Part shown: in pieces, positions 2,061-57,600 of the stretch
How the letters are laid out: each line of letters starts with the position of its first letter
Numbering within the stretch: the first letter of the stretch is position 1
DNA from: Setoptus koraiensis
Taxonomy: Eukaryota > Animalia > Arthropoda
Assembly (NCBI GenBank): GCA_048013815.1
Contig: CM106586.1
Coordinates: 248,001-312,000 of the forward strand
Reading direction: 5' to 3'
Length of the DNA stretch: 64,000 bases
Translations under genes and position numbers: made by a program
The notes under the pieces: model-generated
What the model was told of the DNA's origin: nothing
The model's input: only the letters and a program-made list of their open reading frames with translations
Databases searched by the model: none

Positions 2061-2914
2061 TGATTTAGCAGAGCAGAAGGCGGTCATTCTATACAAGAGC
2101 GCCACACTTTTTTCGAGGATTTTTGGGTATTTTCAGCTGGGGTATTGTACCCTGATACCCGATTGAGTATTCCGGAAGTGCGGAAATTCCTCGTTCCCGA
2201 GATAACCGAGGTACCGCTTAGTGGGTGTTTCTCAATACCCGACGACCGCGAGTGTTTTTAGGGGCATTTTTTTGGGGTAGCATGGGTGTTCCATGGTGGA
2301 GCAACTCATTGCGACCCAGTATGGGTACTTTTTGTGGTGAAGATAGTGACCCCGAGATCAAGCAAAAGTGGTCCGTGCCAGGGCGTAGGAAACTAACATT
2401 TACGGCGACCAAAAGAGATGGGGCCTCTGCAGACAAGCTTACTTTTGCAGATTTGAGCTTTGCATCGCTGGGCGATGAGTCTGCGTTTGATCTGAAAACT
2501 CGGCCTGCGGCCTCATAATTTGGAGGCCGTCACATCTCCGTCGTCGCTCCCGCGACGACTGCGTGCGACGGGAGCCCTCCGGGTAGGGTTGATGAGCGCT
2601 TCGGGTATTGGGCTACGCCCTCTACCCCCGCTCACGTGACTGCAAACCATGGGAAATTCTTGGTTGAAGAAATGCGACGATAGAAACTGAATTCATCACA
2701 ATGATGCGTATCATCAAGAATCGGAGAGATATCGGGATGAATTGGCGCGCGTACATACTCGTGCGCGCGGATGCTTCGTTCCGAGCGGAATACCCGCGCG
2801 GTTTTCCTGAATATCTCCGGAACCAGACGCCGCACAGGTGAAACGAACTCCGTTGTACTTAGCACGTCCGCATCCTGCTGTTCATCAAGTTTCATGGCTC
2901 TAGCTTGAATTTTG

Positions 2915-3738
2915 GGTTGTTGTAGCGATTAGGTCTCCACCCAGATTCTGATGAAACTTCCGGTATAGGTTCATATTGACCCAAATAAGACGAGGAAATT
3001 ACTCCGGAAGCCAGGAAACTTCCGGTTCCGGTTTGACATGAAGTTGAAGCAAGAGATCTGAAACTCACCAGACCGACGTTTCAGAGAACGCTGAACAGAA
3101 TAGCATACTTTTCAGCTCTGTGAGACTTCCGGTTCTCAGGATATCGGCTTATTTATAGGTTTGGAAGACCGGAAGTTGACGAATCTCAGCTTCGCTTCAC
3201 TCGGGTATGAACCTGCGATAGGTCTGAGAACTCAGCCTGCGGCCTCGTAATTTGGAGGCCGTCACATCTCCGTCGTCGCTCCCGCGACGACTACGTGCGA
3301 CGGGAACCCTTCGGGTAGGGTTGATGAGCGCTTCGGATATCGGGCTGCGCCCTTTACCCTCCGCTCACATGACTGCAATCCAGACACAGATGTTTGGAAT
3401 GGCAGAAGAATACGATAATGCATGGTGCTGCGCATACGTGGCACAGAATGAGTCCGCTGAACGCAACCGCACAGACCCGGCCACACCCTCGGTTCAGCTT
3501 GAACCTCTTTATCCACCGGAACGGAAGTAATAGAAAATTAATTTTGATGCCATTATGCTCCGCTAGGTGTCTCCTATCTAATTCCTAAATTTGGGAGCTC
3601 TATCTCGATATTTTCGTATCTCCGGAACCGGAAGTTTCCTGGCATCCGAAATACTAAATTCATAGTATGGGGCCCCTACGGGGCTCTTGTGTGAAGTTTC
3701 ATCGAGATCCGAGTGGGGACCTAATCGCTACAACACCC
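2915..3738 (+). mobile_element. Merlin-type MITE, family 1, complete
   Basis: Ends GGTTGTTGTAGCGATTAGG...CCTAATCGCTACAACACCC; 8-bp target duplication GAATTTTG on both sides; no coding capacity. Confidence 0.88.
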
Positions 3739-13965: not shown

Positions 13966-14535
13966 TTAAGCCCATCATGTTTCGTGCACTTTTGGTTTTA
14001 ATATTATAGTTAGAATATCAGCTCTTTGTAATTGTGTTGGTGCGTATTCAATATTAAACTGTTTTTGAGAATGTTTCTGATGAATGTATTTATATTTTTT
14101 ATCGATATGTTTCGATCTTGCTCTATACCGATTCAATTAGACGTAGGGTAGCCTGGTTATCAATGAGTAGTCTTGCCCAAGTAGTCAAGTTTAATTCACT
14201 TAGAAGACTCTCTACCCATGCGTGTACTTTTGCTGCATGATTTGCTGCCACAAATTCCGCCTCTGTGAATGATTGAGCAATTATAGACTGTATCTCACTC
14301 TTGAATAGTATTGGACCACCACGTAGCTCAATTAGGATACCACTGGTTGACTTGCGTGTTATAATATCACTATCCCAATCTCGGTCACAATACGCATTAA
14401 ACTCGGGCTCATTATGTTTCTATTGTGTAAACAACAAACCGGCTGACATAGCACCCTTCAGATATCTTGCCACCGACAAGGCCGCAGTCCAATGTTTATG
14501 TTTTGAATCAGTGTTGAACCTCGATAGTAAACTTA

Positions 14536-16479
14536 CAGGGTGTTTGAACTGACCTGATATGTAAGCACTGTGGAAGGTACGTGCCTTCCACAGTGCATTT
14601 TTCAAAGCACTGCGGAAGGCATATAGCACAGCACATCGCACACGGGTATTTATTTTTCTTGCGCAACTATTTTCTCTCTCTCTGTGCACTGCGCCAAGCC
14701 ATTCTTGCGCAACAGCATGCCTTTCGCTTCTCTGGACTGTTGCACTTCCGTTTTAAGCCTCGGCCACACCCTAGTTTCTCCTTCATTCGTTCTTTGTCTT
14801 CGATTATTATACAGCTATTATTACTATTATAATTATCAATTAAAATAAAGAACATTATTGATCAAAATTAATTCATAAGAAAGAAAAAATCATGGCAGCA
14901 TTTATCAATCTATTTATCACCGTCGCTCTCATCATATTTGCGACTGCAGATGGTACAGAGCGCTGGACCAGACCGCAGAAGGCCGAAATGATGTGGGATT
15001 GAGCGAGAGTCAAAGAATACAAAACCTTGCAGACTCTGTACATACAAAAGAAGAATGCCGGTTTAATAGATTAAGGCCTACCGGACTATCAAACTCTGCA
15101 CCGAATTAAAAACAAATTTCTCACCTTCGGCACTTTCGACGATCGTCGCAAAGGAGTGAATTGCGAAATAGAAGCCTCAAAGATTGCTGCAATTAAAGAG
15201 CTGACCAAAGGTGGACTGTACCCATCAAGCATCCGCAAAATCGCCGCTCATCCGTCTGTCAACCTGACTATTTATATGACGCACAAGATGCTGCGAAGAT
15301 GTTTGAAGATGAAGCCATACCGTCCCAGAACACTGCAATACTTGAATGATAAGCAGCAAGAGCGGTTAGAATTTGCAAACAAAATTATTCAACTCGCTGG
15401 AGGGCGAGCCAGTCTCAATCATGATTATTTCAAGAATATAATATTTACCGATGAATCTTGGTTCAGCACGGACGGCTCTATCAACAAGCAGAACACTGTA
15501 TTCTGGTCTCCATCGAACCCAATGCAGGTCTATGAGCGCGAGATGCATGCAGATAAAGTCATGGTCATAGCTTCCATTGGCTTTGACTACAAGAAAGGAC
15601 CATTCTTTTTCAATGGTAGTGTGACTTCTCAAAGTTATCAGGATATGCTCGACGCGCACCTCTTCTCTGACCCATATATTATTAACGGCTTTGCTCAGAA
15701 GAGGCTTATCTTCATGCAGGATGGGGCTGGTCCGCATACATCTCTTTTGAACAGAGAGTACTTGAATGAGAAAACCGGCGGCCGTTGGCTCGGCAAGTAT
15801 CCGCCCTATCTGTGGTGGCCACCATATTCGCCAGACTTAACACCTATGGATTTCTACTTCTGGGGCGTTCTTAAATCAAAAGTTTACACGCATGATAGAC
15901 CATTTCGCGGTAAACTTGATCTGCTGAAGAGAGTAATCATTGAAGAATTCAACACCATGGACCAATTCGAAATCAATAAAGCTTGTGTCAGCGGGTTTGT
16001 CGACCGGATTGTCGAAGTTATACAAAACGAAGGTGGACACATCGCTCATGATGTGGAGAATCGAAGAACCGATCCAGAAGATTATCTCTACCTAGACCCA
16101 ATAGAGAGCCTCAGGATGGGACTGAACACGATCTCGCTGAGCGATGACCCGCCTGAGGAAATAGAATGTGACGATGACGATGATGATTTCGAAGTAATGC
16201 TGAAGAGGCAAGTAAACATTGAAGTCTTCCACAGAATCTCAGAGCTTTTAGAAAAATTCGACAAAGAAGAAGCGAAGCGATTCAACAAATATAGTAATTC
16301 TTCTGTCATTAATTAATATTAATTATTAATATTTTCAATGTAAAAGAGCCCCAATAAATGCACGAAGATGAGCACAGTGACAGTGCGCTCGTCGTGCAAG
16401 CGCGCAAGCGTGCGCGCCCGCATACCCCCTCTGTGCGAAAATTTCTGAGCCAACATATCACATCAGTTCAGACACCCTG
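14536..16479 (+). mobile_element. Tc1/mariner (rosa-like) DNA transposon, full length
   Basis: TA|CAGGGTGTTTGAACTGACCTGATATG ... CATATCACATCAGTTCAGACACCCTG|TA imperfect TIRs with TA duplication. Confidence 0.9.
14892..16316 (+). pseudogene. rosa-like DD42D transposase, 474 codons, two in-frame stops in the N-terminal part
   Basis: FTDES, FMQDGAGPH and WPPYSPDLTPMDFYFWG motifs; the frame extends from ATG 14892 through TGA 15000-15002 and TAA 15072-15074 into the tracked ORF 15156-16316. Confidence 0.9.
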
Positions 16480-18534
16480 TACATCAAACACGATGTCTGG
16501 GCGTGTGAGACATGCAAGATAGTTGATCGCTCCTGTGAGGCTACTGTATGGTTTAGATGTTGGTTTATCATCTGAGCATTCTGTGAGCAAATGATTCGCA
16601 TCGATCTATAGAGTTGTCGTTATTTTACCGTTTGCCATGTCAATCTTCGGTTGTTGTAACGATGAAGTCCCCACTCAGATCTTGATGAAACTTTCGGTAT
16701 GAGTCTATTATGACCCCAATAAGTCGAAAAAGTTAGTCTGGAAGTGCGAAAACTTCCGGTTCCGGTTTTACCTGAAGTTGAAGCCAGAGCTCTGAAATTC
16801 ACACGAGAGGCGATCCAGGCTATGCTGAACACGATGACACAATTTCCAGCTCTGTGCTACTTCCGGTTTTCTAGTTATAAGGATATTACTAGGGTTAAAA
16901 GACCAGAAGTGACAAAATTACTGCATCGCTGCACTCAGGTACGATCGCGAACATCGATTTAGAGACACGAGGGGGCAGCAGCGCATTTTTCCCTGCGCAG
17001 AACAGAGCGCGAATTTGAATTAGAAAAAGTGGTTATTCTATACAAGAGCGCCACACTTTTTTCGAGGTATTATGGGTATTTTCGGGTAGGATATTGTACC
17101 CTGATACCGCAATGGGTATTCTGGAAGTGCGGAAATTCCTCGTTCCCGAGATGACCGAGGTACCGCTCAGTGGGCGTTTCACAGTACCCGACAGCCGCTT
17201 GGGGATTTGCAGGTATTTTTTCGAGGTAATTTTTGGTACCTTGATGAGGTCGCATGAGGTTTTTTGGATAGACGAGTATCGTTGGAATATGGATGCGAGA
17301 GATGCATAGATGTTCAACTCCGACATGTTATCACATACTCAGAGACTCAAATCTCCATAGAGTGAACATGTGTAATGTTTAGATACTTTAACATGGTAAT
17401 CGAGAGACTCAAATCTCCATAGGGTTAACATGTGTAATGTTTAGATACTTTAACACGGGAATCGAGAGACTCAAATCTCCATAAGGTTAACATGTGTAAT
17501 GATTAGATACTTTAACGGATTTAGTACAATGAAACGCTTAAATGTTGACTTTTAGAATCTAGCACACGTAAAGCCAGGAGGCGGAGTCATTAGTAAACAA
17601 TTATACAGTGAAGGCTGAGAGACTAACTAGTAAAAATTAGCATGCGATAATGCTAGCTGTTCACAAATTGAATTTAGCACAAGGGAAGCTAGGAGTGCAA
17701 AAGCTAGACGGATTTAGTACGATGAAACGCTTAAATGTTGACTTTTAGAAACTAGCACACGTGAAGCTAGAAGGCAGAGTTATGAGAGGACAAATATACA
17801 GTAGAAGCTGAAACGCTAACTGGTAGAAATAAGCATGCGATAATGATATCTATTTACAAATTTGACTCATCAACACAAAGAAATAGCACACCGCACACAG
17901 GTCGTGCGCTTTATTACAGAGTGCGCCATTGCTGACTTTTTGTGTCTCGAAAAATCATTTATTGTGACTATTCACCAAATTTTGTACGCAAGCAGTCAAC
18001 ATGTGTATTTAGCCATATTGAAAATCTGAGACATTTTGATTTATTTTGTTACCCTCTACAGCTGCTTCGATCAGACCAAACGGCTCATTCTCATAGCACA
18101 CCGCACACAGGTCGCGCGCTATAACACATAGTGCACCATCGCTGACTTTTTGTGTCTCGTAAAATTATTTATTGTGACTAAATCGGGTATTATAAATTCA
18201 CCAAATTTAGTACGCAAGCAGTCAACATGTGTATCTTGCTATAGTGCAAATTTGAGACACGTAGATCTTCTCTCCCAAATCTCGCGGACTCGCTTCAAAT
18301 AGCTCATTCACACATTGAAGTAGCAAACAACATAGATTGTGCATCTTACAGCACATACTGTGCCATCGCCCCTCGGTGTATCTATCTAGATAGTTATCTC
18401 CGACATGTCATTACATACTCGCTTCTATATTCTTATCATACTTGTCCATCCAAAAAATTAAGCGCTCGAGATACTGACATAATCAGTATCACTTGTTTTC
18501 TGATGTTGTCGCATCGATGGTTGAAACGAGAATG

Positions 18535-22836: not shown

Positions 22837-23892
22837 GGGGCTTGTTCGGAAAGACGACACACCCCAATTTGGGTATTTTGGGTATTTTTGGGTAGGGTAT
22901 AGTACCCTGATACCCGAATGGGTATTCCGGAAGTGCGGAAATTCTTCGTTACCGAGATACCCGGGGTACCGCATTGTGGGTATTTCAGGGTATTTGAGGG
23001 CATATCGACGATACAATCGGTCGTACCCACCCGCACGGACATCGGGTAGGGTACTGAGGTCTCCACACCGAGGGTAGATCATTCCTATGAGCCACAGGAA
23101 ATGAATAAAAGCGGTCAAACTGAAGAGGCGTGGCTTGTGCGCGCGGCGCGGAGTGCAACTGCGCCCGCAGATAGTCAGACCACCCACCGAGTCCTAGCGC
23201 GTGCACAATTACTTTTTGCTACCAGTTGCGCGTACTTATTCACGTGTGGACCAGATTCACGTACAGCACACGATCAGCTGTAGTGTGTGCTTGTGCACTA
23301 TGGAAGGCATAGCACACGCTACAGCTGATCGCTCAATGTTGACTAGCGAGGCCAATCAATAGCTATCCTCCCACTCCTACTGTAGCTCAATCACTCAAGC
23401 GCGCACTAATAACTCACACACTAACTCTTTCTTACCCGACAATTAAAACTCCGCATACCCGATAGCGGGTCGACCCAATCTATAAAAAAAAAAATAAACC
23501 CAAAAAGTCATTATAATGACTGATCCACTATCAGGTATGTGGAGTCAAGCTCGACTGTATCGAGAGGCCAGTCTCTCGAACAAGAAAGCTTGCATTGAAT
23601 GGTGTCAGCGAGTAGGCTTGATTCCTTCAATTAAAATGTGCCGAATACACCGGACTCCGTTCCAGCTGGTTGAACAAACACACTTACGGGTATTCGGCCA
23701 TGGTTGGTACTGCAGTAAGTGTCGGAAGAGGGTGGCACTCGGAGTTGGTACTCCATTCGAAAGTTGCCATTCCGACATTGGGCAAGTACTGATGATCGGC
23801 ATGTGCTTCGCAGAGTTAAATACATTAGTGGGGCAGACTCCGCAGATGTTGACTGCCTGTCGAGAGCTGCCGCTAATGGCCTACAAAAAATA
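22837..23892 (+). mobile_element. 5' portion of a transposase-bearing Merlin element
   Basis: GGGGCTTGTTCGGAAAGACGACAC TIR plus a ~230-bp arm matching the end of the MITE at 51198-52053, followed by a Merlin-like ORF. Confidence 0.7.
23516..23892 (+). pseudogene. Merlin/IS1595-like transposase N-terminus (zinc-ribbon region), interrupted
   Basis: CIEWCQRVGLIP..C..H...WYCSKCRKRVALGVGTPFES pattern typical of Merlin/IS1595 N-termini; no DDE part visible; the rest of the tracked ORF is read-through into the inserted element. Confidence 0.7.
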
Positions 23893-24199
23893 TAGGGTGT
23901 CTCAATCAAGCGCCCAGGGTTGTACAGATTATGCTACGCTACCTTCCACAGTGCATTTCTCAGAATGCACTGTGGAAGCTACGCAAGCACAGAGTGTGCA
24001 CAAGCACACAGTGCGCATGCAGCAGCGGCAGTTTGTGTGTGCGGGGAGTGCGGGGAGTGCGGTGTGTGCGGTGTGTGCGGTGTGTGCGGGAGTGCGGGAG
24101 TACGGCGTGTGCGGGGAGTGCGGGGAGTGCGGCGTGCGGCGTGTACCGGAAGCTCCCCAACAACCCTTCCACACTTTTAAAATAATAAATTTATAAATT

Positions 24200-24217
24200 A
24201 ATAAATTAATAAATTTA

Positions 24218-24284
<67 letters not shown>

Positions 24285-24790
24285 CAACAATAACAACAGC
24301 AATAGTAACAACAGCGACAACGGCAACTGCAGCAGCAGCACCACCACCACCACCAACCGCAGCACCACCACCAACCGCAGCAACACCAGCACCAACTGCA
24401 GCAACACCAACTGCAGCAGCAGCACCACCACCAACTGCACCAACTGCAGCAACACCAACTGCACCAACTGCAGCAACACCACCACCAACTTCAGCAACAC
24501 CAACTGCACCAACACCACCAGCACCAACAACAATTGCAACAATTGCAACAACAAAAAATTGGAAAATGGTAAGTTCTAGTCTGCCTGTGCGTGTGCCTGT
24601 GCGTGTGCGTGTGCGTGTGCCTGTGCGTGTGCCTGTGCGTGTGCCTGTGCGTGTGGAGGGGAGTATCAGGAGGGGAGTATCAGGAGGGGAGTAACGGGAG
24701 GGTAGTATCAGGAGGGGAGTAACGGGAGGGTAGTATCAGGAGGGGAGTAACGGGGAGTGGTATCGGGAGGGGAGAATTCGGAGAGAGAAT
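24200..24790 (+). repeat. Simple-repeat block: (AAAAC)n, (CAN)n, (GTGCGT/GTGCCT)n, (GGGGAGTATCAGGA)n
   Basis: Directly visible. Confidence 0.92.
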
Positions 24791-24916
24791 CGCCTATTCG
24801 CTTGCATGTTCTATCGAGTCTTCGGGTATTCGCGTGCATGTTCTATCGGGTATTCGGGTGCGTATAAATTTCTTCGAGGATTTATTTTCTGTGATTGAAT
24901 GTTTCTTTGAGGACGC

Positions 24917-26777
24917 ATGGGCACACCTCCATCTGTATGTTCGCTCTGACTGATCACAGTCCTGAATTTTCAACTGGTTTTGCTCCCTACTTCTACAGGC
25001 CCCATCCAAACACACTCTATTTGCTCTTATTCTGCTGAGTGTCTCTGTCACATGCGTCGGAGCCGAGCTTCTCCCAAAAGATAAAGCGAGAATCCTCTAC
25101 AATTTCTTCAAACTTGGGGAGAATTTTTGCCAGCTACAGAAACTTTACCAAAACAAAACTTTCGAAGTTGGCCAATTTCCGACGGAACGGAGAACTGTCA
25201 TTGATTGGAAAAAAAATTTTCTCGAGTTTGGCAACGTCAATGCTCCAAGGGGCGGTGCTCGTGAGGAGTTAACAAAAATCACGCCGGAACTTATTGAAAA
25301 AGTTAGAGTGGCCTGCAAAAATGGTACAGTACCAACAAGTACGAGATTGATAGCAGCGGAAGTAGGCCTCAGTAGGTGTACCGTTCACAGAATACTTAGA
25401 TGCAAACTGAAGTTGAAAGGATACCATCCACGCCACCTGCCCCGCCTTTACGGAGCTCAAGAGAAACGTATAGCATTTGCGGAAGCCATCCTTGAACGAG
25501 CGCCCCTTGAAAACGATACTTTCTACGAAAGACTCGTCTTCTCCGACGAGGCTTGGTTCACGACTGGAGGTCACGTGAACAAGCACAACACAGTTTATTA
25601 CGCAGATAAAAACCCGCATCATATTGTGGAGACTGAGTTGCACGCTAAAAAGAAAATGGCCATTGTATTCATCGGTCATTCATTCAGAAGAGGCCCGTTC
25701 TTTTTCGACGAGAATATAAACGCAGATAATTACATAAAAATGCTCCATGAAAAATTCTTTGATAATTCAACGATTCGAACATTCAGAAACCGTCGAAAAA
25801 TTTTCATGCAAGACGGAGCTAAACCGCACTCAGCCTTCAAAACGGTTAACTATTTAAACATGCAAACTGACGGTCAATGGATCGGAATCGGATCCTCCTT
25901 CTTAGAGTGGCCCCCACATTCGCCAGACTTGAACCCCCTCGACTTTTTCCTCTGGGGTCATCTTAAACAGCAAGTTTACCAGCATGGCAGAAGTTTCAGA
26001 GACAACCTGCCGTCTCTCATTAACACAATTGAAAATGAGTTTTGGGATATACTAAGTTTCACGATCGACAAGGCTTGTACGACCGAATTCCATGGTAGAC
26101 TCAAGAAAGTCATCGAACTGAAAGGCGCCGTCGTTTCTCACGCAAGAGAGAATCGAATAACTTCCGAAGATACTTATGCCTTTCTCAATCCAGATTTAGC
26201 TGCACAGCTTGATCCGGAAAATTTGTACGGTATTGATTTCGACCGCCTCTACATTTCGAACCCCCCAGGCACTGTGGTGGAAGACTGGTGCCACTGTAAC
26301 GGAACTTGTCCTAGGTGCTTGGAGCCGCTAGATGATCTTCCGAGCGAACTACGTCCCCTCGATGAACCCTCGCCAGAGAAAAGGCCCCGTCTCGAACGAA
26401 GTGTCGAATTTAGTGATCTTAACGAAACCCAAACATATGGAGACGATGTTGACGAAGTCTGTACGCGCAACTCCACCCAACCCGAAGAAAAGAAGCAAAA
26501 GCGATGCAAAAAATGTCGAAAATGTCGAAGATGTAGGAAGTGTCCGACACAGCGTAAATGTATGAGTTCAAGAGGAGCCACTGCATCGAGGAGGTCACCA
26601 TTTTCTAGATCAAGCTTGATTGCTCGCCTCGCTCTATCTGCCGTTGCCCTTACTCAAAGCCAACACGATGCTTATGAAGAGAGCTATGAGCGAGAAGAGC
26701 TGTTCTCAGACGAACCAAGCACTCATGAAGAGGATGATTATGACTCAAACCACGACCCATGCTGGACGACCCATTAA
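24917..26777 (+). CDS. rosa-like DD42D transposase, predicted two exons (24917-24934, 24999-26777), about 598 aa
   Basis: FSDEA, FMQDGAKPH and WPPHSPDLNPLDFFLWG motifs; stop-free frame from 24966; phase-0 64-nt intron GTATGT...CTGAC...pyrimidine tract...CTACAG links it to ATG 24917. Confidence 0.8.
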
Positions 26778-27879: not shown

Positions 27880-28717
27880 TGTATGTAAAATGAACACACA
27901 TTAATAAATTTTCTTCTGTTTGATATTTCACTCCAAAACATGTCTAGAGAGTCGTTATAAGGTACGAGAGAGTGTTAGAAACAAACTAATTTTTACTGTG
28001 ATTATTGCAGAAAAACGACAAAAAACGGGTATATGACTAGCCTATTTGTGCTCAGCTCGACCAGCCGAGAACAGATAGGCTAAGCATAACCCAATAGGAG
28101 TCCAACACCTAAGTAGGGTTCCTTGTTAGCGGACTCACGCGTCTCAAATTCTTCTTTACTTTTGGGTCCAAGGGAAATCGCTGGCGGAGGCTTCATATTC
28201 TCCATTTCTAGGATAACAATATCCTGTGATTGAGGTTCTTCTGGCAAGATAGGATCGCTTCGCGTATCCCCGCCGAACTTGTGATCGTACGGCTCCCATG
28301 CACGATCATCTTGCTCTTGGACATTCTCGTTTCATGATGCATCGCTCCGCAACAGTTACGTGTCACAAGCTGACCACAACAGGTGAATTTGTTTAACTCT
28401 GCGACGTCATGCTTCGCACGACGTCGCGTAACTGTCGCTTCGCGACAGTTATGTTGTTCTCACTGTTTGTTTATTGCACCTTCTCTTACGCAAGCGCAAG
28501 CAAACCACGTGATCGGATGCGTTGTATCTAACCACGACCGTAAACGACTGTAAACGAAGCATAAGAGGTGAATAAGAACCGCTCGTGGAGCGGAATAAGG
28601 ACCGTATGAATACGCCTGGCATCAATTTACAGAGCCAAAAAGGATTACAACGTCGCTTTGAACTACTTGGAGAAGGCGCTAAGCGAGGATCAATGTTATT
28701 CAGGCCTGAAAGAGTTG

Positions 28718-29558
28718 GGTTGTTGTAGCGATTAGGTCCCACCGCCGATCGTGATGAAACTTCCGGTACCGGTTCATCTTGACCCATAACCATCAGGTAG
28801 AGTGGTCCGGAAGTGCGGAAACTTCCGGTTCCGGTTTTAACCAAAGTTGCTTCTAGAGAGTTGAAACTCACCAGACTGACGTTCTAGATGACGACTAACA
28901 GGATGGCATAACTTTTAGCACTTCACCACTTCCGGTTCTCTGGTTATAGCGATATCTCTAGAATTGAGAGACCAGAAGTTGCCGAATTCAGGCTTCGGTA
29001 CACTCAGGGAAGAGCCTGCAATTGTTCTTAGAACTCGGCCTGCGGTCTCGTATTCTGGAGGCCGTCACATCTCCGTCGTCGCTCCCGCGACGACGTCGTG
29101 CGACGGGAACCCTTCGGGTAGAGTTGATGAGCGCTTCGGGTATCGGGCTGTGCCCACACAGCTGCAGGCGGGAAGAGTGAACGAACCACCCAACAGAGTA
29201 TGAAAAAGAGGGGATTAAATGACCGAAACAGACGTGAATAGAGAGTGCAGCGAGCACGAGGCATAGAATTGGTCCGCTGACCGCAACCGCACAGGCCCGG
29301 CCAAACCCCAAAATTTGGTTTAACCTCTGTATCTGATGAACCGGAAGTTAAAGCGGATTAATTTTGATCTCATCATGCTCCGCTAGTTGTCATCTGACTA
29401 ATTCTGAATTTTCACAGCTCTATCTCAACATTTATGTATCTCCGAAACCGGAAGTTTCCGCACTTTCGGACTACTCAATTCATAATATAGGGCCCCTACG
29501 AGGCCTGTGTGTCAAGTTTCATGATGATCGGCGCTGGGACTCCATCGCAACAACACCC
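28718..29558 (+). mobile_element. Merlin-type MITE, family 1, both ends, no TSD
   Basis: GGTTGTTGTAGCGATTAGG...CGCAACAACACCC; core at ~29030-29150; flanks do not match. Confidence 0.8.
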
Positions 29559-30657
29559 GGGAGTCTTTCCGCTTTCTTTGTATATGTCCACCTATTTACC
29601 GTTGCGCAGTAATGATAATCAGACATCCATTGTCTCGCCTTTGTAGTATTTTCGTCGAAATCTTTCTTCTAGATTGTTGCTCCTCTGGGTCACGTGCACT
29701 TGACCCAGCGATTGTTTCTCCTTCGTCGATTTCTTCTTCATCTTCTACCTCTTCTACGGTTTCCGCATCTTCTTCTGGTGGTGGTACGCTGTTTCTTCGT
29801 AAGGCTTCTATTATTCGTTGCTTATCTTCTCAACTGAGATTTGATCTATTAACCGACTCTATTTGTCGTTGTAGTTCTTGATTGTCACTGTCCAACATCG
29901 AGTCAAAGATGGACAAGCTAATTCACGATTACAACAATAATGGATCCTTAGTTGCAATCAAAGAACAGCTCGTTCCGATAAAGAAGATGTTTGATAACAG
30001 TACAATAACTACCGCTATAACTCACCTCAGAGGCAACATAAAGAAAGTCTTCACCACGATCGAATACACTATAGAAATAGGTATTGTGATCTTTTCAATA
30101 ATATTACTTATTATTTTTGTACACGGGGAGTTGTAGCGCTCAAATAAAGCGCCAACACATATAGCGCGCACTCGCCGCGCTACGGCCGTGCATGGTGCCG
30201 TTAACACCACGCAGCACGGCCAGGCGCGACAAGTGCGCGCCTCAGGCTAAAGACATGTAAATGGGCAATTCTGCTGACCTCAGCAGAATGCCCCTATAAA
30301 TAAAGCCACCACTGATCGACAAAGATCAGTCGTGATCAGACCTACTCCGAGACAACATCTCAAACAGATCATATCCCTTATACAAGTGCAATGAACGGAC
30401 AAACGAGGGTATCTCGGGGTAGTTCTATATCTGAAAAAGTACTTGTACTTGCTAGGATTCGAACCTAGACACTTGAATATACGTTTCAATGCTCTGCCAG
30501 TTAAGCTACAAGTCGGTTCCTTTATTAGTGTAGACTATGTCCCTTATATGCATACCCTGTCCGTTACACAAGCACACAGCGCGTGACTCTAAAGATCGAA
30601 AACTGTGAATATCCACAAATAGATCGGTACGTGGATATTCACTGGCATACAAAGTCG

Positions 30658-31973: not shown

Positions 31974-32633
31974 GATCCTTGGAGCGGTGATCATGCGTTA
32001 TGCTGAAATACCCATCATACCCCACACCAGTTATTTCGAATTCGAGTCGATTCTCCACTTCCGGAATACCTTCAAAAGGATGAGGGTTTTTTGATGTACG
32101 CAAATAGTGCCCGAAATACCTCAAGTACGCTCCGAAGACTCCTAGCGGTCGTCGAGTATCTCGAAACTCCCACTGTGCGGTACCTCGGGTAACTCGAAAA
32201 CCGTAAATTTCTACATCTTATGAATATTTGTTTGGGTATCAGGATACTATACACTACCCGAATATACCCAAAATACCCAGATCGGAACTACGCCCAGTTC
32301 GCTACAACAGCCGATATTTTTTCCCGTCACCACCCCTGCAGTGGTTATCACCAAATATCTTGTGAACCGGAAGTTGTTCAGACTTGAAATTTACTGTATC
32401 GTACTTTGCGTGCTTTTATCTAGATGTATAGAGTGTTTCAGGTCCATATCTCAATTTTTAGCGCTTAATTTTAATTAAGGGCTTATGATGTAGTGCTGTG
32501 GGATCCTGAAGATCACGCATGAATATCCACGCACGGTATGGTGGTGGATACTTAATTCGTGCATTTCATAGGATATTCACCAATTGTGCTATGGTGATTC
32601 ACGCGCTGTGTGCTTGTGAATACTCCGACTTTG

Positions 32634-33493
32634 GGTTGTTGTAGCGAATAGCGACCCGCCCCGATTTTGGTGAAACTTCCGGTACGGGTACTTCTTGACC
32701 CCAATAGACCGGAAAAGTTGGTCCGAAAGTGCGGAAACTTCCGGTTCCGGTTTTACATAAAGTTAAAGATAGAGCTCCGAAATTCACCAGAGAGACGTTT
32801 CAAGCTACGCTGAACACGATGAAATAATATTCAGCTCTCTGCAACTTCCGGTTGTCTAGAAATAGAGATATTACAAGGGTTTGAAGACCGGAAGTGACCG
32901 AATTATTGCTTCGCTGCGCTCGGGGATGAACATGCGATGGGTCTGAAAACTCGGCCTGCGGCCTCGTATTCTGGAGGCCGTCACATCTCCGTCGTCGCTC
33001 ACGCGACGACTGCGTGCGACGGGAACCCTTCGGGTAGGGTTGATGAGCGCTTCGGGTATCGGGCTGCGCCCTCTACCCTCCGCTCAGGTGACTGCAATCC
33101 ACACAGGAATGAAGGTGAAAGAACGAACTGGAGACATGTTTTTGGCACAGAAAAAAGGCTGTGCCAGCTTGTGTGATAAATTGCATGAGCCTCTGAGCGC
33201 ACGAATTCATTCAGGCGCGCGGATAGTTCGTCCCGTCGACGCCCTCTCAGCAGTTTTAACCAAATATCTCGTGAACCGGAAGTCGTACAGACTTGAAATA
33301 GACATGATCGTATTCCGCATGCACAGTTTCAGTTATCTAGTGAGTTTCAAATCTGTATCTCAATGTTTTTGTAAAACCGGAACCGGAAGTTTCCGCACTT
33401 CCGGACCACTCAAACTGTTGTCAGGGGGCCCCACGGGCCCGATGTGTAAAGTTTCATCGAAATCTGACTGGGTCGCTATTCGCTACAACACCC
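32634..33493 (+). mobile_element. Merlin-type MITE, family 1 (GAATAGCGACC subtype)
   Basis: Both ends present; almost identical to 45680-46717 apart from that copy's solo LTR; no 8-bp TSD. Confidence 0.85.
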
Positions 33494-33889
33494 GCGCTGT
33501 GTGCTTGCATACATTAGCACTAGCATAATCAGTGCTTAGTGAGTGTGTAGGCTGAAATGTGCTTGGGAGGTGGGAGGTACACTCAAGCTTAAGACTCGAA
33601 AGTTCGTCCACCTCCCAAACACACATTTACTAGGGAGGTGGATTGAATTTTGATTCTCGGGCTCATGTCTAGTTAGGAGGTGGACCGAAGCTATAACGAG
33701 ATAGGTTTAGCTACTCAAAATAGCGTGGGGCGACTCATGCTTGGGAGGTAGACTAGCTTGAGCTTAAACAATAAGTTCACCTCCTGAGCATGCAACAACC
33801 TACATACAAGTTTGAGACTCGAAGGTTCGTCCACCTCCCCAACACACATTTCAGGGAGGTGGATTGAATTTTAAGTCCCGGGCCAAAGA

Positions 33890-34602
33890 AATTTTGGCTG
33901 ACGGATGTCATGTGAATATCGTGATATTTGAACATGTTCCCACCTATCCGTTTTGATGATACTGCGTGTGTGTGTTGTGCATGTTGCTCGCAACATTCTG
34001 TGCAAGTATGATCAGAAATCAATTGGTCGTTTTCGAGACAGAAAGAAATTTCGGATGACGGATGTCATGTATAGTCATCGATTTCTGAACATGTTCCCAC
34101 CTATCCGTTTTGATGATACTGCGTGTGTGTGTTGTGCATGTTGCTCGCAACATTTTGTGCAAGTATGATCAGAAATCAATTGGTCGTTTTCGAGACAGAA
34201 AGAAATTTTGGATGACGGATGTCATGTGAATATCGTGATATTTGAACATGTTCCCACCTATCCGTTTTGATGATACTGCGTGTATGTGTTGTGCATGTTG
34301 CTCGAAACATTTTGTGCAAGTATTACATTATGTGCGATTTTCGAAACTGTTCTCACCAGGATAAATTCTTGAAACTTTCTAGAGACAGCAAGCACTGTGC
34401 CATACACGATCTGTGCAAGTCTTATAAATTTTCTGTTTCTAGTATTGGCGCTATAGGCAATTCTGGATCATGTTAGCTCATTCAATACATCTGATTTCTG
34501 ATCACATGTGAATATCGTGATATTTGAACATGTTCCCACCTATCCGTTTTGATGATACTGCGTGTATGTGTTGTGCATGTTGCTCGCAACATTTTGTGCA
34601 AG
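33890..34602 (+). repeat. 157-bp tandem satellite, left part (resumes at 40056-40460)
   Basis: ACGGATGTCATGT recurs at 33901, 34058 and 34215, and again at 40111, 40268 and 40425 (157-bp period). Confidence 0.9.
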
Positions 34603-35018
34603 TGTTAAGATATGTGTCGAAATATAGGCCTAACCATCTATGGTGAAAGTCCATAGATGGGTAGGTAATAAAATTAGTAGACCTAGCTACGAGGTCGAAT
34701 GTAGGGCGAAAGTGTAATAAAAATTAGAGTGCTAAAGAGAGAGAGAGGGAGAGTTAGAGAAGGAGAAAGAGAGTGAAGGAGAGAGAGAGAAAGCAATAGA
34801 ACTGAGTCGAAAAAGAAAAATAGTTAGTTGAAAAAGAGTCGTCGATGCGAGTAGATGAAAAACATAACAAATAAATAAATCAACAAAAAGATAACAAGTC
34901 TCATAGTTTAAATAGCCAACATTTAATATGGGGGTCCGGCAAAAGAACCCAATCAGTTAAGTTAATCAAATAAATTAAATTAATAAGAAGAAATACACTT
35001 CGTATCTTAGTTGGCGGG

Positions 35019-36302
35019 GTGGTTGTGTTGAAAATCTTAAAAAGTACATCAAAAGCAAAGACTACAAAGGAATCACGGTGGATAACCGAAGAAATCTTGG
35101 ACTGCAGCCGAAATTTCCTAAAGTACCACCTGAAGAGACCTTTGACGTTCAAGTTTAGGTTAACAGGCAAGTATCAATCTTGTATGGCAGAATTAGAACG
35201 TGATCAGAGAGATAGAATAATCAAAGAGTTCAACAGCTACCTCCTAGAAGTCGAAACTATAGTCAGCGACACGATTATAAGTAAAGCGGGACGTGACCGG
35301 TTACTTGTCGTGCTAGACAAGATCTACAGCATCTATAGACAAGCCTTCACAATCTCGGAAGAATATCTCCAAAAGAAGAATAAGAAAGTACTGAAACCCG
35401 AAAATATACGGCAATATTGCGAGGATATTGCTCGGAGTAAGACGGCTGGTGTACCGACAACGCTATTAATCAAGAATCACATAAGCAGTGTAATAGCGAG
35501 AATATATTACGATTTTAACGTTCCGATATTTTCGGCCGTATCTAAGAAGAAACTTATTGGTCAATTTGTATTAATCGACGCGAAAAAGTTTGTTCTGTTC
35601 AATATAAGAGAAGGCTCAGAACCAGCCCCTGTAGAACCTATCGAAAACATAGAAGGCGACGAAGATCAACTCAACGAGACAGCCAGAGGTGCTTTTAACC
35701 AGTATGAAGAACAAAACCCTATCTTGTCTGGATCAAATCTAACGGTGCGATCAAGTGAACCCAGAGAGCTAGGGCAATCATCAAACACTGCGTCGGAAGC
35801 TAGTTTAATTGCGGATAGAGAGCACAGATTAACGACTTCCGACAGCGCGTACGAGTCGAGGCATAATATATCTACCCAAGTAATAGAAGAAGAAAGTGAT
35901 TCAGACAACGACGAAGAATTTGACGCAACGATAATCGATAGCGGCACGGAGAAATCGATACCGCAAGCACAAACTCCAATAAAAGAATCGCAGGTAGAGG
36001 AAATCACAGAGGCATCGCCAACGGAACAAGCTACCGAGACACCGCAAGCGGAAGAAGAGTTAGCTTTGAACGATTCAGTCGAATAGCAACCATCATTATT
36101 GGAATTTAGCTTCCGAACCTTCGAGAACTCAAAGGACGAAGAGGAATTAATAGAACAAGTCATGGGCGATAGATCGGCCGCCGAAGAAGACCGGAACTTG
36201 TCTAAGAAGAAACCACCAACATTCGACGGGGTGTCAAACGCTCGTAGTTGGTGGAAGGAATACGGGCAGATGTGGCCACGCTCCAGGTTAACATCTAGAT
36301 AA
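35019..36302 (+). CDS. ORF1 (355 aa, unknown, acidic tail) in frame, via one TAG, with a gag-like segment
   Basis: 36099 is in frame with 35019; PPTFDGVSNARSWWKEY resembles the start of a gypsy capsid. Confidence 0.55.
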
Positions 36303-39126: not shown

Positions 39127-42100
39127 GATGCGGCTACACAAATTGGACAGGTTGGCACTTGACTGATTGTTTCATAATAGCAAAAATAATAATCGAAATA
39201 CAAACGTCGGAAAATACTATCATCATTATTAACCAATCATACGCGTATTGATATCATCCAATCACGCTTCTGACATCACCAAGTCGAGATAGCGGACCTG
39301 GTGAACAGCAGATCATTTAAGCACCACACGTTTAGTGAATAATATAGATATATCATATCCAACACTTCTCTCGCACTACATACACACTCTTATCACCCGC
39401 TATCACACCCATTGTACACTCACCTTCGATCTGATTGATTGATTATACTCCGCTGGTTCTAAAGTTTTTGCTAGATTTGTATTGACGAATATACACGATT
39501 TCAGTTGGTTAAAAAATTTTAATGGGGGGAAAATGGACTAATTCCTGGGTTCCTTGGATCTTCCTATCTGTTTCAGCTGGTTATCGAGTTGCTAAACTGG
39601 ATTACTAAAACTTAAACATTTATCAACTGGCTTGGTCAAACAAAAATTCACGACTAAAATAAAATTTGAGTGAACCATCGACAGCGGATAGATCGAGGAC
39701 GATCGGGATGTTCCCCCGGAGGAGGGGGATGTTACGATATGTGTCGAAATATAGTCCTAACCATCTATGGTGAAAGTCCATAGATGGGTAGGTAATAAAA
39801 TTAGTAGACCTAGCTACGAGGTCGAATGTAGGGCGAAAGTGTAATAAAAATTAGAGTGCTAAAGAGAGAGAGAGGGAGAGTTAGAGAAGGAGAAAGAGAG
39901 TGAAGGAGAGAGAGAGAAAGCAATAGAACTGAGTCGAAAAAGAAAAATAGTTAGTTGAAAAAGAGTCGTCGATGCGAGTAGATGAAAAACATAACAAATA
40001 AATAAATCAACAAAAAGATAACAAGTCTCATAGTTTAAATAGCCAACATTTAATACAAGTAAGATCAGAAATCAATTGGTCGTTTTCGAGACAGAGAGAA
40101 ATCGAGGATGACGGATGTCATGTATAGTCATCGATTTCTGAACATGTTCCCACCCATCCGTTTCGATGATACTGCGTGTGTGTGTTGTACATGTTGCTTG
40201 CAACATTTTTTGCTAGTATGACCAGCCATCAATAGGCCGATTTCGAGACAGAAAGAAATTTCGGATGACGGATGTCATGTATAGTCATCGATTTCTGAAT
40301 ATGTTCCCACCTATCCGTTTTGATGATACTCTGTGTGTGTTTTGTGCATGTTGCTCGCAACATTCTGTGCTAGTATGATCAGTCATCAATAGGTCGTTTT
40401 CGAGACAAAAAGAAATTTCGGATGACGGATGTCATGTATCGTCATCGATTTCTGAACATGTAACTCATAATCAATTTTCTGTCTCTAGTATTGGCGCTAT
40501 AGGCCATTCCTGATCAGGTGAGCTCACAATATGTATATGATATCTGATCAGGTATGCCCATACATCACGTGGCATTTTTGAAACTGTTCTCATCCGGATA
40601 AATTCCCGAAGCTTTCTAGAGACAGCTAGCACTGTCTAATACACGATCTGTGCAAGTCTAATTAATTTTCTGTTTCTAGTATTGGCGCTATAGGCCATTA
40701 TTGAGAACATGTGCCTATACAGTATGTGTGATTTTCGATAATGTTCTCACCAGGATAAATTCTCGAAACTTTCTAGAGACAGCTAGCACTTATCACTCCT
40801 TAATATACTGTCCAAACCTCTGAGATCGTTCACTGGAAAAATTAAGCGCTCTTATACTGGTATGATCAGTATAACTTGTTATGTAAAACCGGAACCGGAA
40901 GTTTCCGCACTTCCGGATCACCAAGGTTGTCATTTGCAGACCCTATGGGCCCCGTGTGTGAAGTTTCATTGAAATCAGACTGGGGCACTAATCGCTACAA
41001 CACCCGATTTATCTAGGGTCGAGCCATGCATAGAGAACATACACAGTGTCGTAAACTTGGTCCAATACGGAATCAACGCGACGCTGATGTATTCAATTGC
41101 AAAACAAACAGAATACTCCTAAGCATAGAGAGAGTAATCGTCGAATTCGATAACTTCAAAGTATATGATATCAAGGAGCGTATAGGTGATTACCAGTCGA
41201 AAGAATGGCATGATAAGATATGCATCGTTCTCATTATCGTCAGGGAAATAGCCATGGCCACGCGACGTCAGGCCTGGAGGGATCAACTCGGAATTTTTCT
41301 TCATAATGTGGAAGTAACCGGCATACTCGAACTGTTCCACAAATTCCGACTATGTTGGGAGATAGGCTACAGACACCTAATAACCACGCCCTATATTTAT
41401 AATAAAGTTTTCAACTTATTTATTATCATTTATTCACCTTATTTATCTTCATTTATTTACCTTATTTTCAGATGTACACCCTTGATGCTGAGTTTTTAGC
41501 GCTTAATTTTAATTAAGTTGCTATTGGTTTGGTGTTTATTGCTAATTTATTCACGTGACAATGTAATCCTATGGAGGTTCGACTTAGTCAAATTTGTGAG
41601 AATCCTCAAATTCTGCCTAACATAAAACTGTATTCCTATAGAGATTCGACTCAATCTATTATCGCTTCACTCGAAAATATTTCGTATGCGATCCTATGGA
41701 GATTTGTCTTAGTCGAATTTGTGAGGAGTTCGGTGGTGACAATTGTAACTTCGTAATTCGAAATTGAAAATTCGAATTTCTGATGATAATTACAGCTGCT
41801 CAGTCAGAGTTCGATGGTCAGAGTTCTCAGTTCGATGGTCACAATTCGAACTTCGAAATTCGAATTTCTGATGATAATTTCAGCTGCTCTGTCGGAGTTC
41901 GATGGTCGATGTTCGATGGTCACAATTCGAACTTCGAAATTCGAAATTGAAAATTCGAATTTCTGATGATGATTTCAGCTGCTCTGTCGGAGTTCGATGG
42001 TTAGTGTTCTCAGTTCGATGGTCGAAGTTCGGTGGTCAGAGTTTGATGGTCGATGTTCGATGGTCACAATACGAAGTTTGAAATTGAAAATTCAAATTTC

Positions 42101-42602
42101 TGATGTAAGTTTCATCTGCTCGTTCGATGTTCGGTGGTCAGTGTTCGATGGTGAGAGTTCGATGGTCACAGTTCGAACTTCGAAATTCGAAATTGAAAAT
42201 TCGAATTTCCGATACGAGTTCCAGGTGCTTGTACAGAGTTCGATGGTTCCAATTCGAAGTTCGGTGGTCACATTTCGAAATTCGAAATTGAATGTTCGAA
42301 TTTCTGTTGACAATTTCATCTAGGTTAAAGTCCCGGAGAGCGCCACACTTTTTTCGGGCTAAGTCTTATATCTACTATTCCTTGCTGTATTGGACGCGAC
42401 TTCATCAAGAAACCAGAAATTACCCCGAAGAAATACCCGCAAATCCCCAAGCGGCTGTCGGGTAACGAGAAACGCCCATAGAGCGGTACCTCGGTTATCT
42501 CGGGAACCAGGAATTTCCGCACTTCCGGAATACCTATCGCGGTATCAGGGTACAATAGATTACCCGAAAATACCCAAGATACCCCGAGAAAAGTGTGGCG
42601 CT

Positions 42603-43470
42603 GGTTGTTGTAGCGATTAGGTCCCAGCGCCGATCATGATGATACTTGCGGTACAGGTTCATCTTGACCCAAAACCATTGGAAAAAGTGTTCCGGAAGTG
42701 CGGAAACTTCCGGTTCCGGTTTTACCTAAAGTTGCTTCTAGAGAGTTGAAACTCACCAGACTGACGTTCTAGATGACGATTAACAGGATGACATAACTTT
42801 CAGCTCTTCACCACTACCAGTTCTCTGGTTATAGCGATATCTCTAGAGTTGAGAGACCAGAATTTGCCGAATTCTGGCTCCGCTACACTCAGGGATGAGC
42901 CTGCAATTGTTCTTAGAACTCGGCCTGCGGCCTCGTATTCTGGAGGCCGTCACATCTCCGTCGTCGCTCCCGCGACGACTGCGTGCGACGGGAACCCTTC
43001 GGGTAGGGTTGATGAGCGCTTCGGGTATCGGGCTGCGCCCTCTACCCTCCGCTCACATGACTGCAATCCAAACACAGCTGCAGGCGGGAAGAGTGTGCGA
43101 ACCAGCCAAAAGAGAATGAGAAAGAAGGGATTAAATGACTGAAACAGACGTGAATACAGAGGGCAGCGAGTACGAGGCACAGGATAGGTCCGCTTACCGC
43201 AACCGCACAGGCCCGGCCTCACCCTAAAATTTGGTTTAACCTCTATATCCTATGAACCGGAAATTAAATCGGATTGATTTTGATCCCTTCATGCTCCGCT
43301 AGGTGTCCACCATCTGATTCTGAAGTTTCGAAGCTCTATCTCAAAATTTTTGCATCTCCGGAACCGGAAGTTTCCGCACTTCCGGACTAGCGGATCTGTT
43401 GTTTGAGGGCCCTGCTGGCCCCATGTGTGAAGTTTGGTGGAAATCTGAGTGTGGCACTATTCGCTAGAAC
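42603..43470 (+). mobile_element. Merlin-type MITE, family 1, right end runs into the gap
   Basis: Left TIR, core at ~42915-43070, right TIR ...CTATTCGCTAGAAC. Confidence 0.85.
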
Positions 43471-43970
43471 NNNNNNNNNNNNNNNNNNNNNNNNNNNNNN
43501 NNNNNNNNNNNNNNNNNNNNNNNNNNNNNNNNNNNNNNNNNNNNNNNNNNNNNNNNNNNNNNNNNNNNNNNNNNNNNNNNNNNNNNNNNNNNNNNNNNNN
43601 NNNNNNNNNNNNNNNNNNNNNNNNNNNNNNNNNNNNNNNNNNNNNNNNNNNNNNNNNNNNNNNNNNNNNNNNNNNNNNNNNNNNNNNNNNNNNNNNNNNN
43701 NNNNNNNNNNNNNNNNNNNNNNNNNNNNNNNNNNNNNNNNNNNNNNNNNNNNNNNNNNNNNNNNNNNNNNNNNNNNNNNNNNNNNNNNNNNNNNNNNNNN
43801 NNNNNNNNNNNNNNNNNNNNNNNNNNNNNNNNNNNNNNNNNNNNNNNNNNNNNNNNNNNNNNNNNNNNNNNNNNNNNNNNNNNNNNNNNNNNNNNNNNNN
43901 NNNNNNNNNNNNNNNNNNNNNNNNNNNNNNNNNNNNNNNNNNNNNNNNNNNNNNNNNNNNNNNNNNNNNN
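43471..43970. other. Assembly gap (500 N)
   Basis: Run of N. Confidence 1.
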
Positions 43971-43977
43971 AGGAGCG

Positions 43978-45679
43978 TTGTCTGACCTCACGAAAAAGAA
44001 CGCACAATTCACCTGGGGTGAACGTGAAAAAGAAAGCTTTAATAGTATTAAACAAGGGCTATTAGAAAGCAAGGCCATAGCATATTTTAGGCAAGGTTGC
44101 CCATTAATCCTAAAGACAGACGCATCGCGCAAAGGATTTGCGGCGATACTGCTACAACTGCAGGACGGCGATTGGCGCATAGTAGCGACAGCCAGCAGAC
44201 GGATTTCAACAGGCGAATCAAATGTGAGTGTGACCGAACTAGAAGGAGCGGCGTTAATATACGCATGAATTAAATTCAGACAATTTGTCTACGGATAGAG
44301 AGTGAAAGTAATAGTTGACCATTGTGCTCTCTGCACACTGGGGAAAACCAAACCACTAGAAGGAAGATTAGCTCGCTGGGCTTTAGCCCTATCAGAATTT
44401 TATTTGGATATAGTTTATAGATCTGGAAGACAGCACGCGGACGTTGACTGTTTGTCACGTCAACCTGTGGCTGACCACGACGACAAACTAGACGAGACGA
44501 GATTTATTTTTGCACTAATCCCGTTGGAAGATTACAGATCCAAGTACGATACAGACGAAGAATGCAAAACAGCATTGCAAAAGATTAAACGAGAAGAAAA
44601 CACATTTAAACTAACTAACGGATACATTTATAAAGACAATCGCTTATTAGTACCAACAGAATACAGGAACACATTAATAGACGACATTCATGCACAAGGC
44701 CACGCCGGAGTAAACCAAACAGTAGACCTGGTTCAACGCAAATATTACTGGGCCAGTCTTAAAGACGACATACAAAAGAGAGTAGCAGCCTGCATGACTT
44801 GTCAGAGACATAAAATACCAAGAGAACGTCCAAGCGGATTAATGCATTCATTTGAAAGTCACATGCCATTTGAAGTGATAAGTATGGATCACCTAGGACC
44901 AATGGATGCGACAAGCAAAGGCAATAAGCATGTTCTAGTTGCAATTGACACATTCAGCAAATTTATTATTGCAGCCCCAACTAAATCCACGTGCGCAGAA
45001 GAGGTAGTTAAATTTATCATCAACAATATCATAGCGATACACGGCGTGCCAAATACTTTATTTTCCGATAACGCAAGCGGATTCACCGCAAACCTGACCA
45101 AACAGGTAGTAGAAGCTTTCGGTATAGAGCTTAACCATTCCACTCCATACCACCATAGAGGTAACTCAATTGTGGAACGATCAATACAAACCCTAAAAGA
45201 TAAGATTGCCATTTCCATGGCAGACGCCGACAACACTGAATGGGATGATCATATTGGAATGGTATGTTTAGCCATCAATGCCACGAAACATTCATCGACA
45301 AAATTTAGTCCTTATGAAGTACTATTTGGTAGAAAATTGCGACTACCGAGAGAGGCTAAGGAGGTGTCAGCAGAAACAGAAGTTTATACAGAGTCCCTAC
45401 AAGCAAAATTAGAGCTTATTAGAAGGAACGTAGCAGAAAGCATCCATTCGAGCAACGAGCTATCAAAACAATATTACGACGCGAAGAGGAAGGAAAAGAA
45501 ATTCAGCATTGGTGACGAAGTAATGGTTCACTTCGAGCCAAAGAACGACGCAAAACCGAATAAGCTATCAAGCAACTATCGCGGACCATACGAGGTCATT
45601 GACACGAAGCCTCATGACATCTATAAATTAGAACTGATCGATTCCAAAAAGAAGAAGAAGATAATACTTGCTCACGTTT
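43978..45679 (+). pseudogene. pol: Ty3/gypsy pol: RNase H and integrase (continues at 46725 after the MITE)
   Basis: TDAS and ELEG in RNase H; H..GHAG...C..C zinc finger; ISMDHLGP, SDNA and VERS integrase core; GPY motif; two in-frame stops near 44266-44298. Confidence 0.93.
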
Positions 45680-46717
45680 GGTTGTTGTAGCGAATAGCGA
45701 CCCGCCCCGATTTTGGTGAAACTTCCGGTACGGGTACTTCTTGACCCCAATAGACCGGAAAAGTTGGTCCGGAAGTGCGGAAACTTCCGGTTCCGGTTTT
45801 ACATAAAGTTAAAGATAGAGCTCCGAAATTCACCAGAGAGACGTTTCAAGCTACGCTGAACACGATAAAATAATATTCAGCTCTCTGCAACTTCCGGTTG
45901 TCTAGAAATAGAGATATTACAAGGGTTTGAAGACCGGAAGTGACCGAATTATTGCTTCGCTGCGCTCGGGGATGAACATGCGATGGGTCTGAAAACTCGG
46001 CCTGCGGCCTCGTATTCTGGAGGCCGTCACATCTCCGTCGTCGCTCCCGCGACGACTGCGTGCGACGGGAACCCTTCGGGTAGGGTTGATGAGCGCTTCG
46101 GGTATCGGGCTACGCCCTCTACCCTCCGCTCAGGTGACTGCAATCCACACAGGAATGAAGGTGAAAGAACGAACTGGAGACATGTTTTTGGCACAGAAAA
46201 AAGGCTGTGCCAGCTTGTGTGATAAATTGCATGAGCCTCTAAGCGCACGAATTCATTCAGGCGCGTGTTATACAACATGGCATATCCCATACAAACTCCT
46301 CCCTGTGCGCTCGACGCTACGCCGTCGCCTATTTAAGGCGAGCGCACAGGGAGTAATGGATTCATTCCTGTATCCAGCTACAAATAGAGCATATCTTATA
46401 TATAAAATAACACTACCCGCAATTGCTTATTTCATAACACGCGCGGATAGTTCGTCCCGTCGACGCCCTCTCAGCAGTTTTAACCAAATATCTCGTGAAC
46501 CGGAAGTCGTACAGACTTGAAATAGACATGATCGCATTCCGCATGCACAGTTTCAGTTATCTAGTGAGTTTCAAATCTGTATCTCAATGTTTTTGTAAAA
46601 CCGGAACCGGAAGTTTCCGCACTTCCGGACCACTCAAACTGTTGTCAGGGAGCCCCACGGGCTCCATGTGTAAAGTTTCATCGAAATCTGACTGGGTCGC
46701 TATTCGCTACAACACCC
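45680..46717 (+). mobile_element. Merlin-type MITE inserted in the integrase C-terminus
   Basis: CACGTTT duplicated on both sides (7 matching bases; 8 with one mismatch); removal restores AHVSRLKPY. Confidence 0.92.
46266..46439. mobile_element. 174-bp solo LTR nested in the MITE
   Basis: TGTTAT...ATAACA termini; CGCG 4-bp TSD; absent from the sister MITE copy (empty site at ~33215). Confidence 0.85.
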
Positions 46718-57593: not shown

Positions 57594-57600
57594 AGCGTGT

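Follow-up and report, generated by a model that had tools for sequence, protein, structure and literature searches.

A signal peptide would be expected to place a transposase across a membrane from the nuclear DNA that is its substrate; the transposases of Mos1, Sleeping Beauty and SETMAR are not known to have one. Among the LTR retroelements, the errantiviruses, including gypsy and ZAM, bear envelopes and pass from the soma to the germ line. Env-bearing BEL/Pao elements also exist (excerpted text of bioRxiv 10.1101/2025.02.07.637071). The rosa/DD41D (Visitor) elements, for example Crmar2 and the aphid element Apismar4, are described in excerpts of PMC5490172 as having TIRs of 27-32 bp and transposases of 361-362 residues within 1.3 kb. 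The hepatitis B precore protein, according to the abstract of PMC9300162, returns to the cytosol or is secreted after signal-peptide cleavage, with a non-imported fraction remaining in the cytoplasm and nucleus. In a yeast Tc1 study an additional domain was put to the test and no signal peptide was reported (PMC9977792), and neither of the terms 'DD42D' and 'signal peptide' was found in the part of PMC8472432 searched. No transposase with a signal peptide was found in the literature searched, which comprised abstracts and partial texts, and a secretory route for a Tc1/mariner transposase was likewise not found described in these texts.

Element 1, its neighbours and its clade

In the 64,000-nucleotide stretch of DNA analysed here (the window), a complete Tc1/mariner DNA transposon, rosa-related and with DD42D spacing, occupies positions 14534..16481 of the plus strand (element 1; 1,948 bp with both TA dinucleotides). 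Its TIRs, at 14534..14562 (left, plus strand) and 16453..16481 (right, minus strand), are each 29 nt in length with the TA included, are 90% complementary and carry TA at both ends. A subterminal inverted 16-bp motif in three hairpin-like copies (14562..14619) is common to element 2 only, with five matches at two or fewer mismatches in the window (three in element 1 and two in element 2; 0.03 expected) and none elsewhere in the window. The transposase 1 frame (14892..16316, plus strand; 474 codons; DDE_3 E 7.9e-08; DD42D) is broken in this copy by two in-frame stops, and its extension upstream through both of these, at codons 37 and 61, to the ATG at 14892 gives a leader before the HTH region, as had been proposed. 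Element 1 splits a minus-strand Copia reverse-transcriptase remnant with TA at both junctions, the left flank matching the window's intact Copia ORF (39.8%, E 7e-19) and the right flank carrying the preceding motif of the same frame. From this TA-flanked insertion it follows that element 1 transposed with the leader inside it, in agreement with the claim that the leader lies within intact TIRs and travelled with the element. Further element junctions were observed among the loose contig ends of public runs. Domestication of element 1 was ruled out by the intact ends and target duplication, with some copies being broken.

Element 1 resembles the rosa/DD41D elements, as these are portrayed in the excerpted literature, in its 29 bp TIRs, a similar AGGGTG terminus, the TA target and the DDD triad, and its nearest database homologues are mostly DD41D (173/260 rows). 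In contrast to the excerpted descriptions, the catalytic spacing is DD42D, the transposases comprise 474-592 residues and the element measures 1.95 kb, while a hydrophobic leader, a long C-terminal tail, the subterminal hairpin motif and a long stem branch further distinguish the clade to which it belongs. Because spacing and size depart from those of DD41D elements, the clade was filed as rosa-related. As one correction to the original prediction, which spoke of rosa-type transposases, the catalytic spacing is not the DD41D of rosa proper.

The clade as currently known comprises five proteins, namely transposase 1 (P0001), transposase 2 of the same window (P0002) and three further close database proteins (P0003, P0004 and P0005), which form single-member clusters. 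P0003 is 56% identical to transposase 1 and begins with MDSYKIIVLLATIFLFAEG, followed by the first helix. In P0004, 24 residues with a weakly hydrophobic core (best 11-residue Kyte-Doolittle mean, KD11, of 1.21) lie ahead of the anchor residue, while the gene call of P0005 starts inside the DNA-binding domain. In a quickly built tree of 50 rows, 45 of them drawn from the best-scoring matches and none of them an outgroup or a named rosa reference, the five proteins group as one clade (SH-aLRT 100; stem 1.19) that a long branch separates from the rest. Judged from these sequence comparisons, the clade is a long-branch DD42D group adjoining the rosa/DD41D elements. The catalytic spacing is 42 in all five members, as it is in 23 other rows, and residues D182, D272 and D315 of P0003 are invariant in 113 aligned rows. 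DDE_3 scores above the cut-off in 4/5 members and HTH_32 matches, below its curated cut-off, in 3/5. The AlphaFold model of P0003 contains two confident three-helix groups (residues 25-77 and 93-135) and aligns with chains of the Mos1 transpososome at a best E of 1.8e-12, so that it shares the transposase fold of Mos1, Sleeping Beauty and SETMAR. Unlike these, all five members continue for 93-216 residues beyond the last Gly shared by the whole family, in a long tail (93 residues in transposase 1, at 16035..16313 on the plus strand), compared to a median of 7 residues in the other homologues, where tails of at least 80 residues occur in 2/246. This tail opens with H-x-x-ENR in 5/5 members, a pattern also present in two other proteins, and diverges beyond its first 40-50 residues. 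No more clade members were found among shorter proteins (72 matches; best identity over at least 80 columns 46%), among 80 metagenome loci, all of which were distant, or in viral contigs, and only P0003 and P0005 stood out among the best 150 representatives.

Transposase 2 (24999..26777, plus strand) is a stop-free frame of 592 codons with 37.7% identity to transposase 1 (E 5e-67), the first in-frame Met of which is residue 220. Its signal-peptide-like leader (24999..25064, plus strand) sits at the same place as leader 1, has the core LFALILLSVSV and ends in V-G-A, with a KD11 of 2.83 that was reached by 27/20,000 base shuffles. The left end of element 2 (23891..23979, plus strand) carries a rosa-type terminus and the shared subterminal motif, while no match to a right TIR was found (best 18/35 bases), an N gap following at 27047. 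The start of transposase 2 would depend on a predicted phase-0 intron (24569..24998, plus strand), which directly follows a predicted start codon (24566..24568, plus strand) with the splice donor GTAAGT and ends in a pyrimidine tract and CAG. This acceptor (15/20 upstream bases pyrimidine) is the best YAG acceptor listed; splicing to a rival acceptor at 24959 would lead straight into a stop. The leader, intron and right end of element 2 are all read from the window copy alone. At 24197-24780 (plus strand), within element 2 and upstream of transposase 2, an AC-rich low-complexity tract with an open Thr/Ala/Pro frame and no Met of its own is followed, in the predicted intron, by GTGCCT and GGGGAGTA repeats. 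The tail of transposase 2 (26230-26777, plus strand) is rich in Cys and basic residues, with a C-x-C, repeated C-x-x-C and NLS-like KRPR and KKQK stretches. The N-terminal part of a transposase-like ORF, presumably of the Merlin/IS1595 type and with no Pfam support, occurs at 23516-23890 (plus strand) and is cut where element 2 begins.

Several other features were observed in the window, whose element types suggest an invertebrate animal as host. An Env-like ORF (46925-48631, plus strand), for which no convincing Pfam family was found, directly follows a Ty3/gypsy integrase (44299-45690) and includes an N-terminal hydrophobic stretch, an RDKR site followed by a hydrophobic peptide, a coiled coil and a hydrophobic C-terminal segment. 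At 51995-57599 (minus strand) lies a Copia element whose long open gag-pol frames are divided between two ORFs. Tandem repeats of 157 bp (33766-34379 and 39976-40589) flank a 370-codon ORF without a Pfam hit (34974-36086, plus strand), while a FLYWCH zinc finger ORF (49782-50342, plus strand) is likely a Mutator-type transposase fragment and an intron-less tRNA-Tyr(GTA) (30444-30515, minus strand) may be a pseudogene or the head of a SINE. Copies of a dispersed repeat family characterised by a CCGGAACCGGAAGT core are very abundant; at least ten, in both orientations, are spread over the window, including those at 2909-3411, 16643-16942, 28712-29455, 32628-33494 and 42597-43475.

The hydrophobic leader of the transposases

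Translation from the ATG at 14892 gives MAAFINLFITVALIIFATADG, followed by TERWTRPQKAEMMW, the start of the Tc1/mariner DNA-binding domain. The first 21 codons (14892..14954, plus strand) constitute the signal-peptide-like leader, with predicted cleavage after Ala19 or Gly21. The context of the ATG is strong (A at -3, G at +4), and the best 11- and 19-residue Kyte-Doolittle means of the leader are 3.07 and 2.33, respectively. When the bases of the leader were shuffled, 17 of 20,000 versions (7,254 stop-free) reached the former value, while 11/623 open ATG-started 29-codon frames in the window (from 2,197 ATGs) reached 2.8. The second codon position is T or C in 17/20 codons and the first a purine in 15/20, a composition bias which is codon-phased, unlike that of a plain pyrimidine tract. 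In an alignment of 260 homologues, 29 residues of transposase 1 lie ahead of a basic residue that is conserved in the first DNA-binding helix, compared to a median of 8 in the 223 other Met-started homologues, and the leader is thus a true addition. An out-of-frame 13-codon ORF (14950-14993, plus strand), the TGA of which overlaps the ATG-ATG of Met33/34, is possibly a chance occurrence or a re-initiation route.

The stretch is present in 6/12 public runs listed, and the contigs of four of these six, representing at most three samples, were compared. The codon at 15000, where the window has TGA (15000..15002, plus strand), encodes Trp in every covering contig of all four runs, and that at 15072, where it has TAA (15072..15074, plus strand), encodes Tyr, by which stop-codon recoding was ruled out. 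A contig of run X3 spans 14859-15144 without gaps, with the leader and both codons open and three differences, none of them in the leader, while the region is covered by two contigs in X5, one of which has a single difference. The sole leader change among the differences listed is synonymous (position 14933). The leader and open frame are common to other copies and the two stops of the window are copy-specific, so that a check for copies lacking either returned copies that keep the leader and read through both positions. A different stop at codon 32 in the X1 contig and one X6 contig shows that not every copy is open, and the near-identity of the other copies provides little information on selection. 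Relatives at 35-56% identity carry a leader at the same place, in keeping with the suggestion that it is ancestral. The leader is a trait of the clade and not an accident of one broken copy, and it is very probably real, coding and ancestral.

The KD11 values of the leaders in P0001, P0002 and P0003 are 3.07, 2.83 and 3.25, respectively, and exceed the 2.06 of the stretch that probably serves the Env-like ORF as its signal peptide. Between 24 and 29 residues precede the anchor residue in the clade (27-29 in P0001-P0003). Among the 223 other Met-started homologues, 28 have at least 20 residues before the anchor and four have a core of at least 2.5; at least two of these four stem from over-long gene calls, having another Met where the protein usually begins, and the hydrophobic-start homologues that were checked are scattered in the quick tree. 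A crude signal-peptide rule, written post hoc with the leaders already seen and combining an uncharged core of at least 2.5 with small residues at -3/-1, passes P0001, P0002 and P0003, all three of which have these small residues, and fails P0004 (3/4 clade N-termini). The same post hoc rule passes 0/255 other homologues and 5/623 random open ATG frames, one of which is leader 1. Two general marks of a cleavable eukaryotic signal peptide, an uncharged hydrophobic core of 7-15 residues close to the N-terminus and small residues flanking a cleavage site 15-30 residues in, are likewise seen in three of the four members with an N-terminus. With P0004 weak and the P0005 call truncated, the leader is clear in only two of the clade's three lineages. 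The leaders are identical in 3-7 of 20-22 columns, against 39-59% identity in the core, and this fast divergence is, as far as sequence can tell, the pattern of hydrophobicity kept without the sequence being kept. Their hydrophobic moment is low (0.34-0.50), indicating that they are not amphipathic packing helices. A single Lys precedes the core in P0002 and P0003 and none in P0001; a positively charged n-region is often absent from eukaryotic signal peptides. The P0003 model, based on 113 rows, renders the leader as a helix of low confidence (block means 57 and 52), with a confident fold from residue 21 onwards; the low confidence may reflect alignment depth alone, as few rows cover the leader. 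The clade transposases are likely to be ER-targeted, as predicted from these features.

Possible fates of a transposase with a predicted signal peptide

The reading preferred here, to which a probability of just under one half (about 0.48) is assigned, is that the inherited coding leader is a predicted cleavable ER signal peptide and that the processed enzyme partly reaches the nucleus. Such hydrophobic leaders are bound by the signal-recognition particle, which would engage the leader during translation, and signal peptidase would cut just before the first DNA-binding helix, leaving a near-normal N-terminus. Some of the transposase would escape import or slide back to the cytosol and then transpose, while retention, degradation or secretion of the remainder would limit how much enzyme the nucleus receives. 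The invariant triad and the past movement of the elements imply that a share of the enzyme must enter a nucleus, and return to the nucleus of the same cell is put forward, tentatively and at slightly less than even odds, as the main working route. No conserved downstream Met that would bypass the leader was found in the clade (second Met at 33, 31 and 49; first internal Met of P0002 at 220). The clade proteins contain 3-11 N-glycosylation sequons, the other homologues 1.6 per 350 residues, and these sequons could be harmful to DNA binding if the enzyme fully entered the lumen. By mechanistic analogy only, sequence and fold being unrelated, the transposase may be likened to the hepatitis B precore protein, a nucleic-acid-binding protein with a signal peptide and, as described, a split fate. 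In HBV a second, separate start additionally yields a core protein without the leader, of which the clade shows no conserved equivalent.

Against this reading, a selfish element should readily shed a leader that did no more than lower its activity. In an alternative, favoured by the long retention of the leader as a sign that the element gains from it, the transposase would be secreted and enter a different cell, for instance in passing from soma to germ line, to mobilise the copies already there, with the tail as an uptake or membrane-crossing module. This alternative, which draws on the same leader evidence as the ER signal peptide, is considered unlikely. The co-occurrence of the leader and the 93-216-residue tail in the clade is in its favour, as is the tail of P0005 (residues 385-496), an all-beta region with Cys residues that lies behind an RRRR site and weakly matches a CUB-domain feature (0.80). 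However, the CUB assignment was not upheld (no Pfam hit, model pLDDT of 52 and no fold match at E 0.001), and the convertase site (R-x-[KR]-R) was rejected as a clade feature, being present in the tail of 1/5 members only, P0005. Moreover, the tails diverge past their conserved opening, all members lack a pore-forming or second hydrophobic segment (second-best 19-residue mean no higher than 1.09), and a secreted protein must still cross a membrane to reach DNA. Like the Env-bearing retroelements, the clade would represent mobile elements using the secretory pathway; in the retroelements the signal peptide belongs to a separate Env protein of a particle, and in the clade, as predicted here, to the catalytic enzyme of a cut-and-paste element with no capsid or Env. 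It is doubtful, though conceivable, that a transposase made in one cell and secreted through the ER is taken up by a second one, for example in the germ line, in which RNA of the element is silenced, and reaches its nucleus by means of the tail, which would amount to cell-non-autonomous DNA transposition that needs no capsid or envelope.

It is decidedly improbable that the leader is a 5' UTR or intron, with the protein starting at Met33/34 or being spliced in at the CAG ending at 14949. An acceptor at this position is plausible (13/20 pyrimidines), Met33/34 are in frame, and over-long gene calls do give hydrophobic pseudo-leaders among the ordinary homologues. Against this are the strong start context at 14892 and the codon bias described above; no upstream ATG-donor pair joining in frame was found in element 1, and Met33, a residue that is not conserved, falls within the first helix of the model. 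Three divergent proteins would, in addition, have to share same-length, stop-free hydrophobic frames by chance, at ~1-2% each. The least probable reading is that the leader stays uncleaved as a signal anchor, by which the transposase would be tethered to the nuclear envelope or the ER while the enzyme itself faced the nucleoplasm or the cytosol. This topology would give DNA access without retro-translocation, and it suits the 19-residue uncharged stretch of element 1 with no positive charge before it, but not the -3/-1 small-residue site ending all three leaders, the gap of only 2-6 residues between leader and first helix, or the uncharged stretch of P0003, which spans 12 residues between Lys and Glu. 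Twelve uncharged residues are too short for a stable membrane span, and this favours cleavage over anchoring. Of the two destinations named in the original prediction, secretory targeting or a membrane anchor, a cleavable signal peptide is thus the better fit, and secretory targeting is supported as a prediction.

Retention of the predicted cleavable signal peptide across 35-56% identity implies either rationing of the enzyme or between-cell action of a DNA transposon. Between-cell action, if true, would bear on how DNA transposons evade germ-line silencing, and would provide a natural model of a deliverable transposase.
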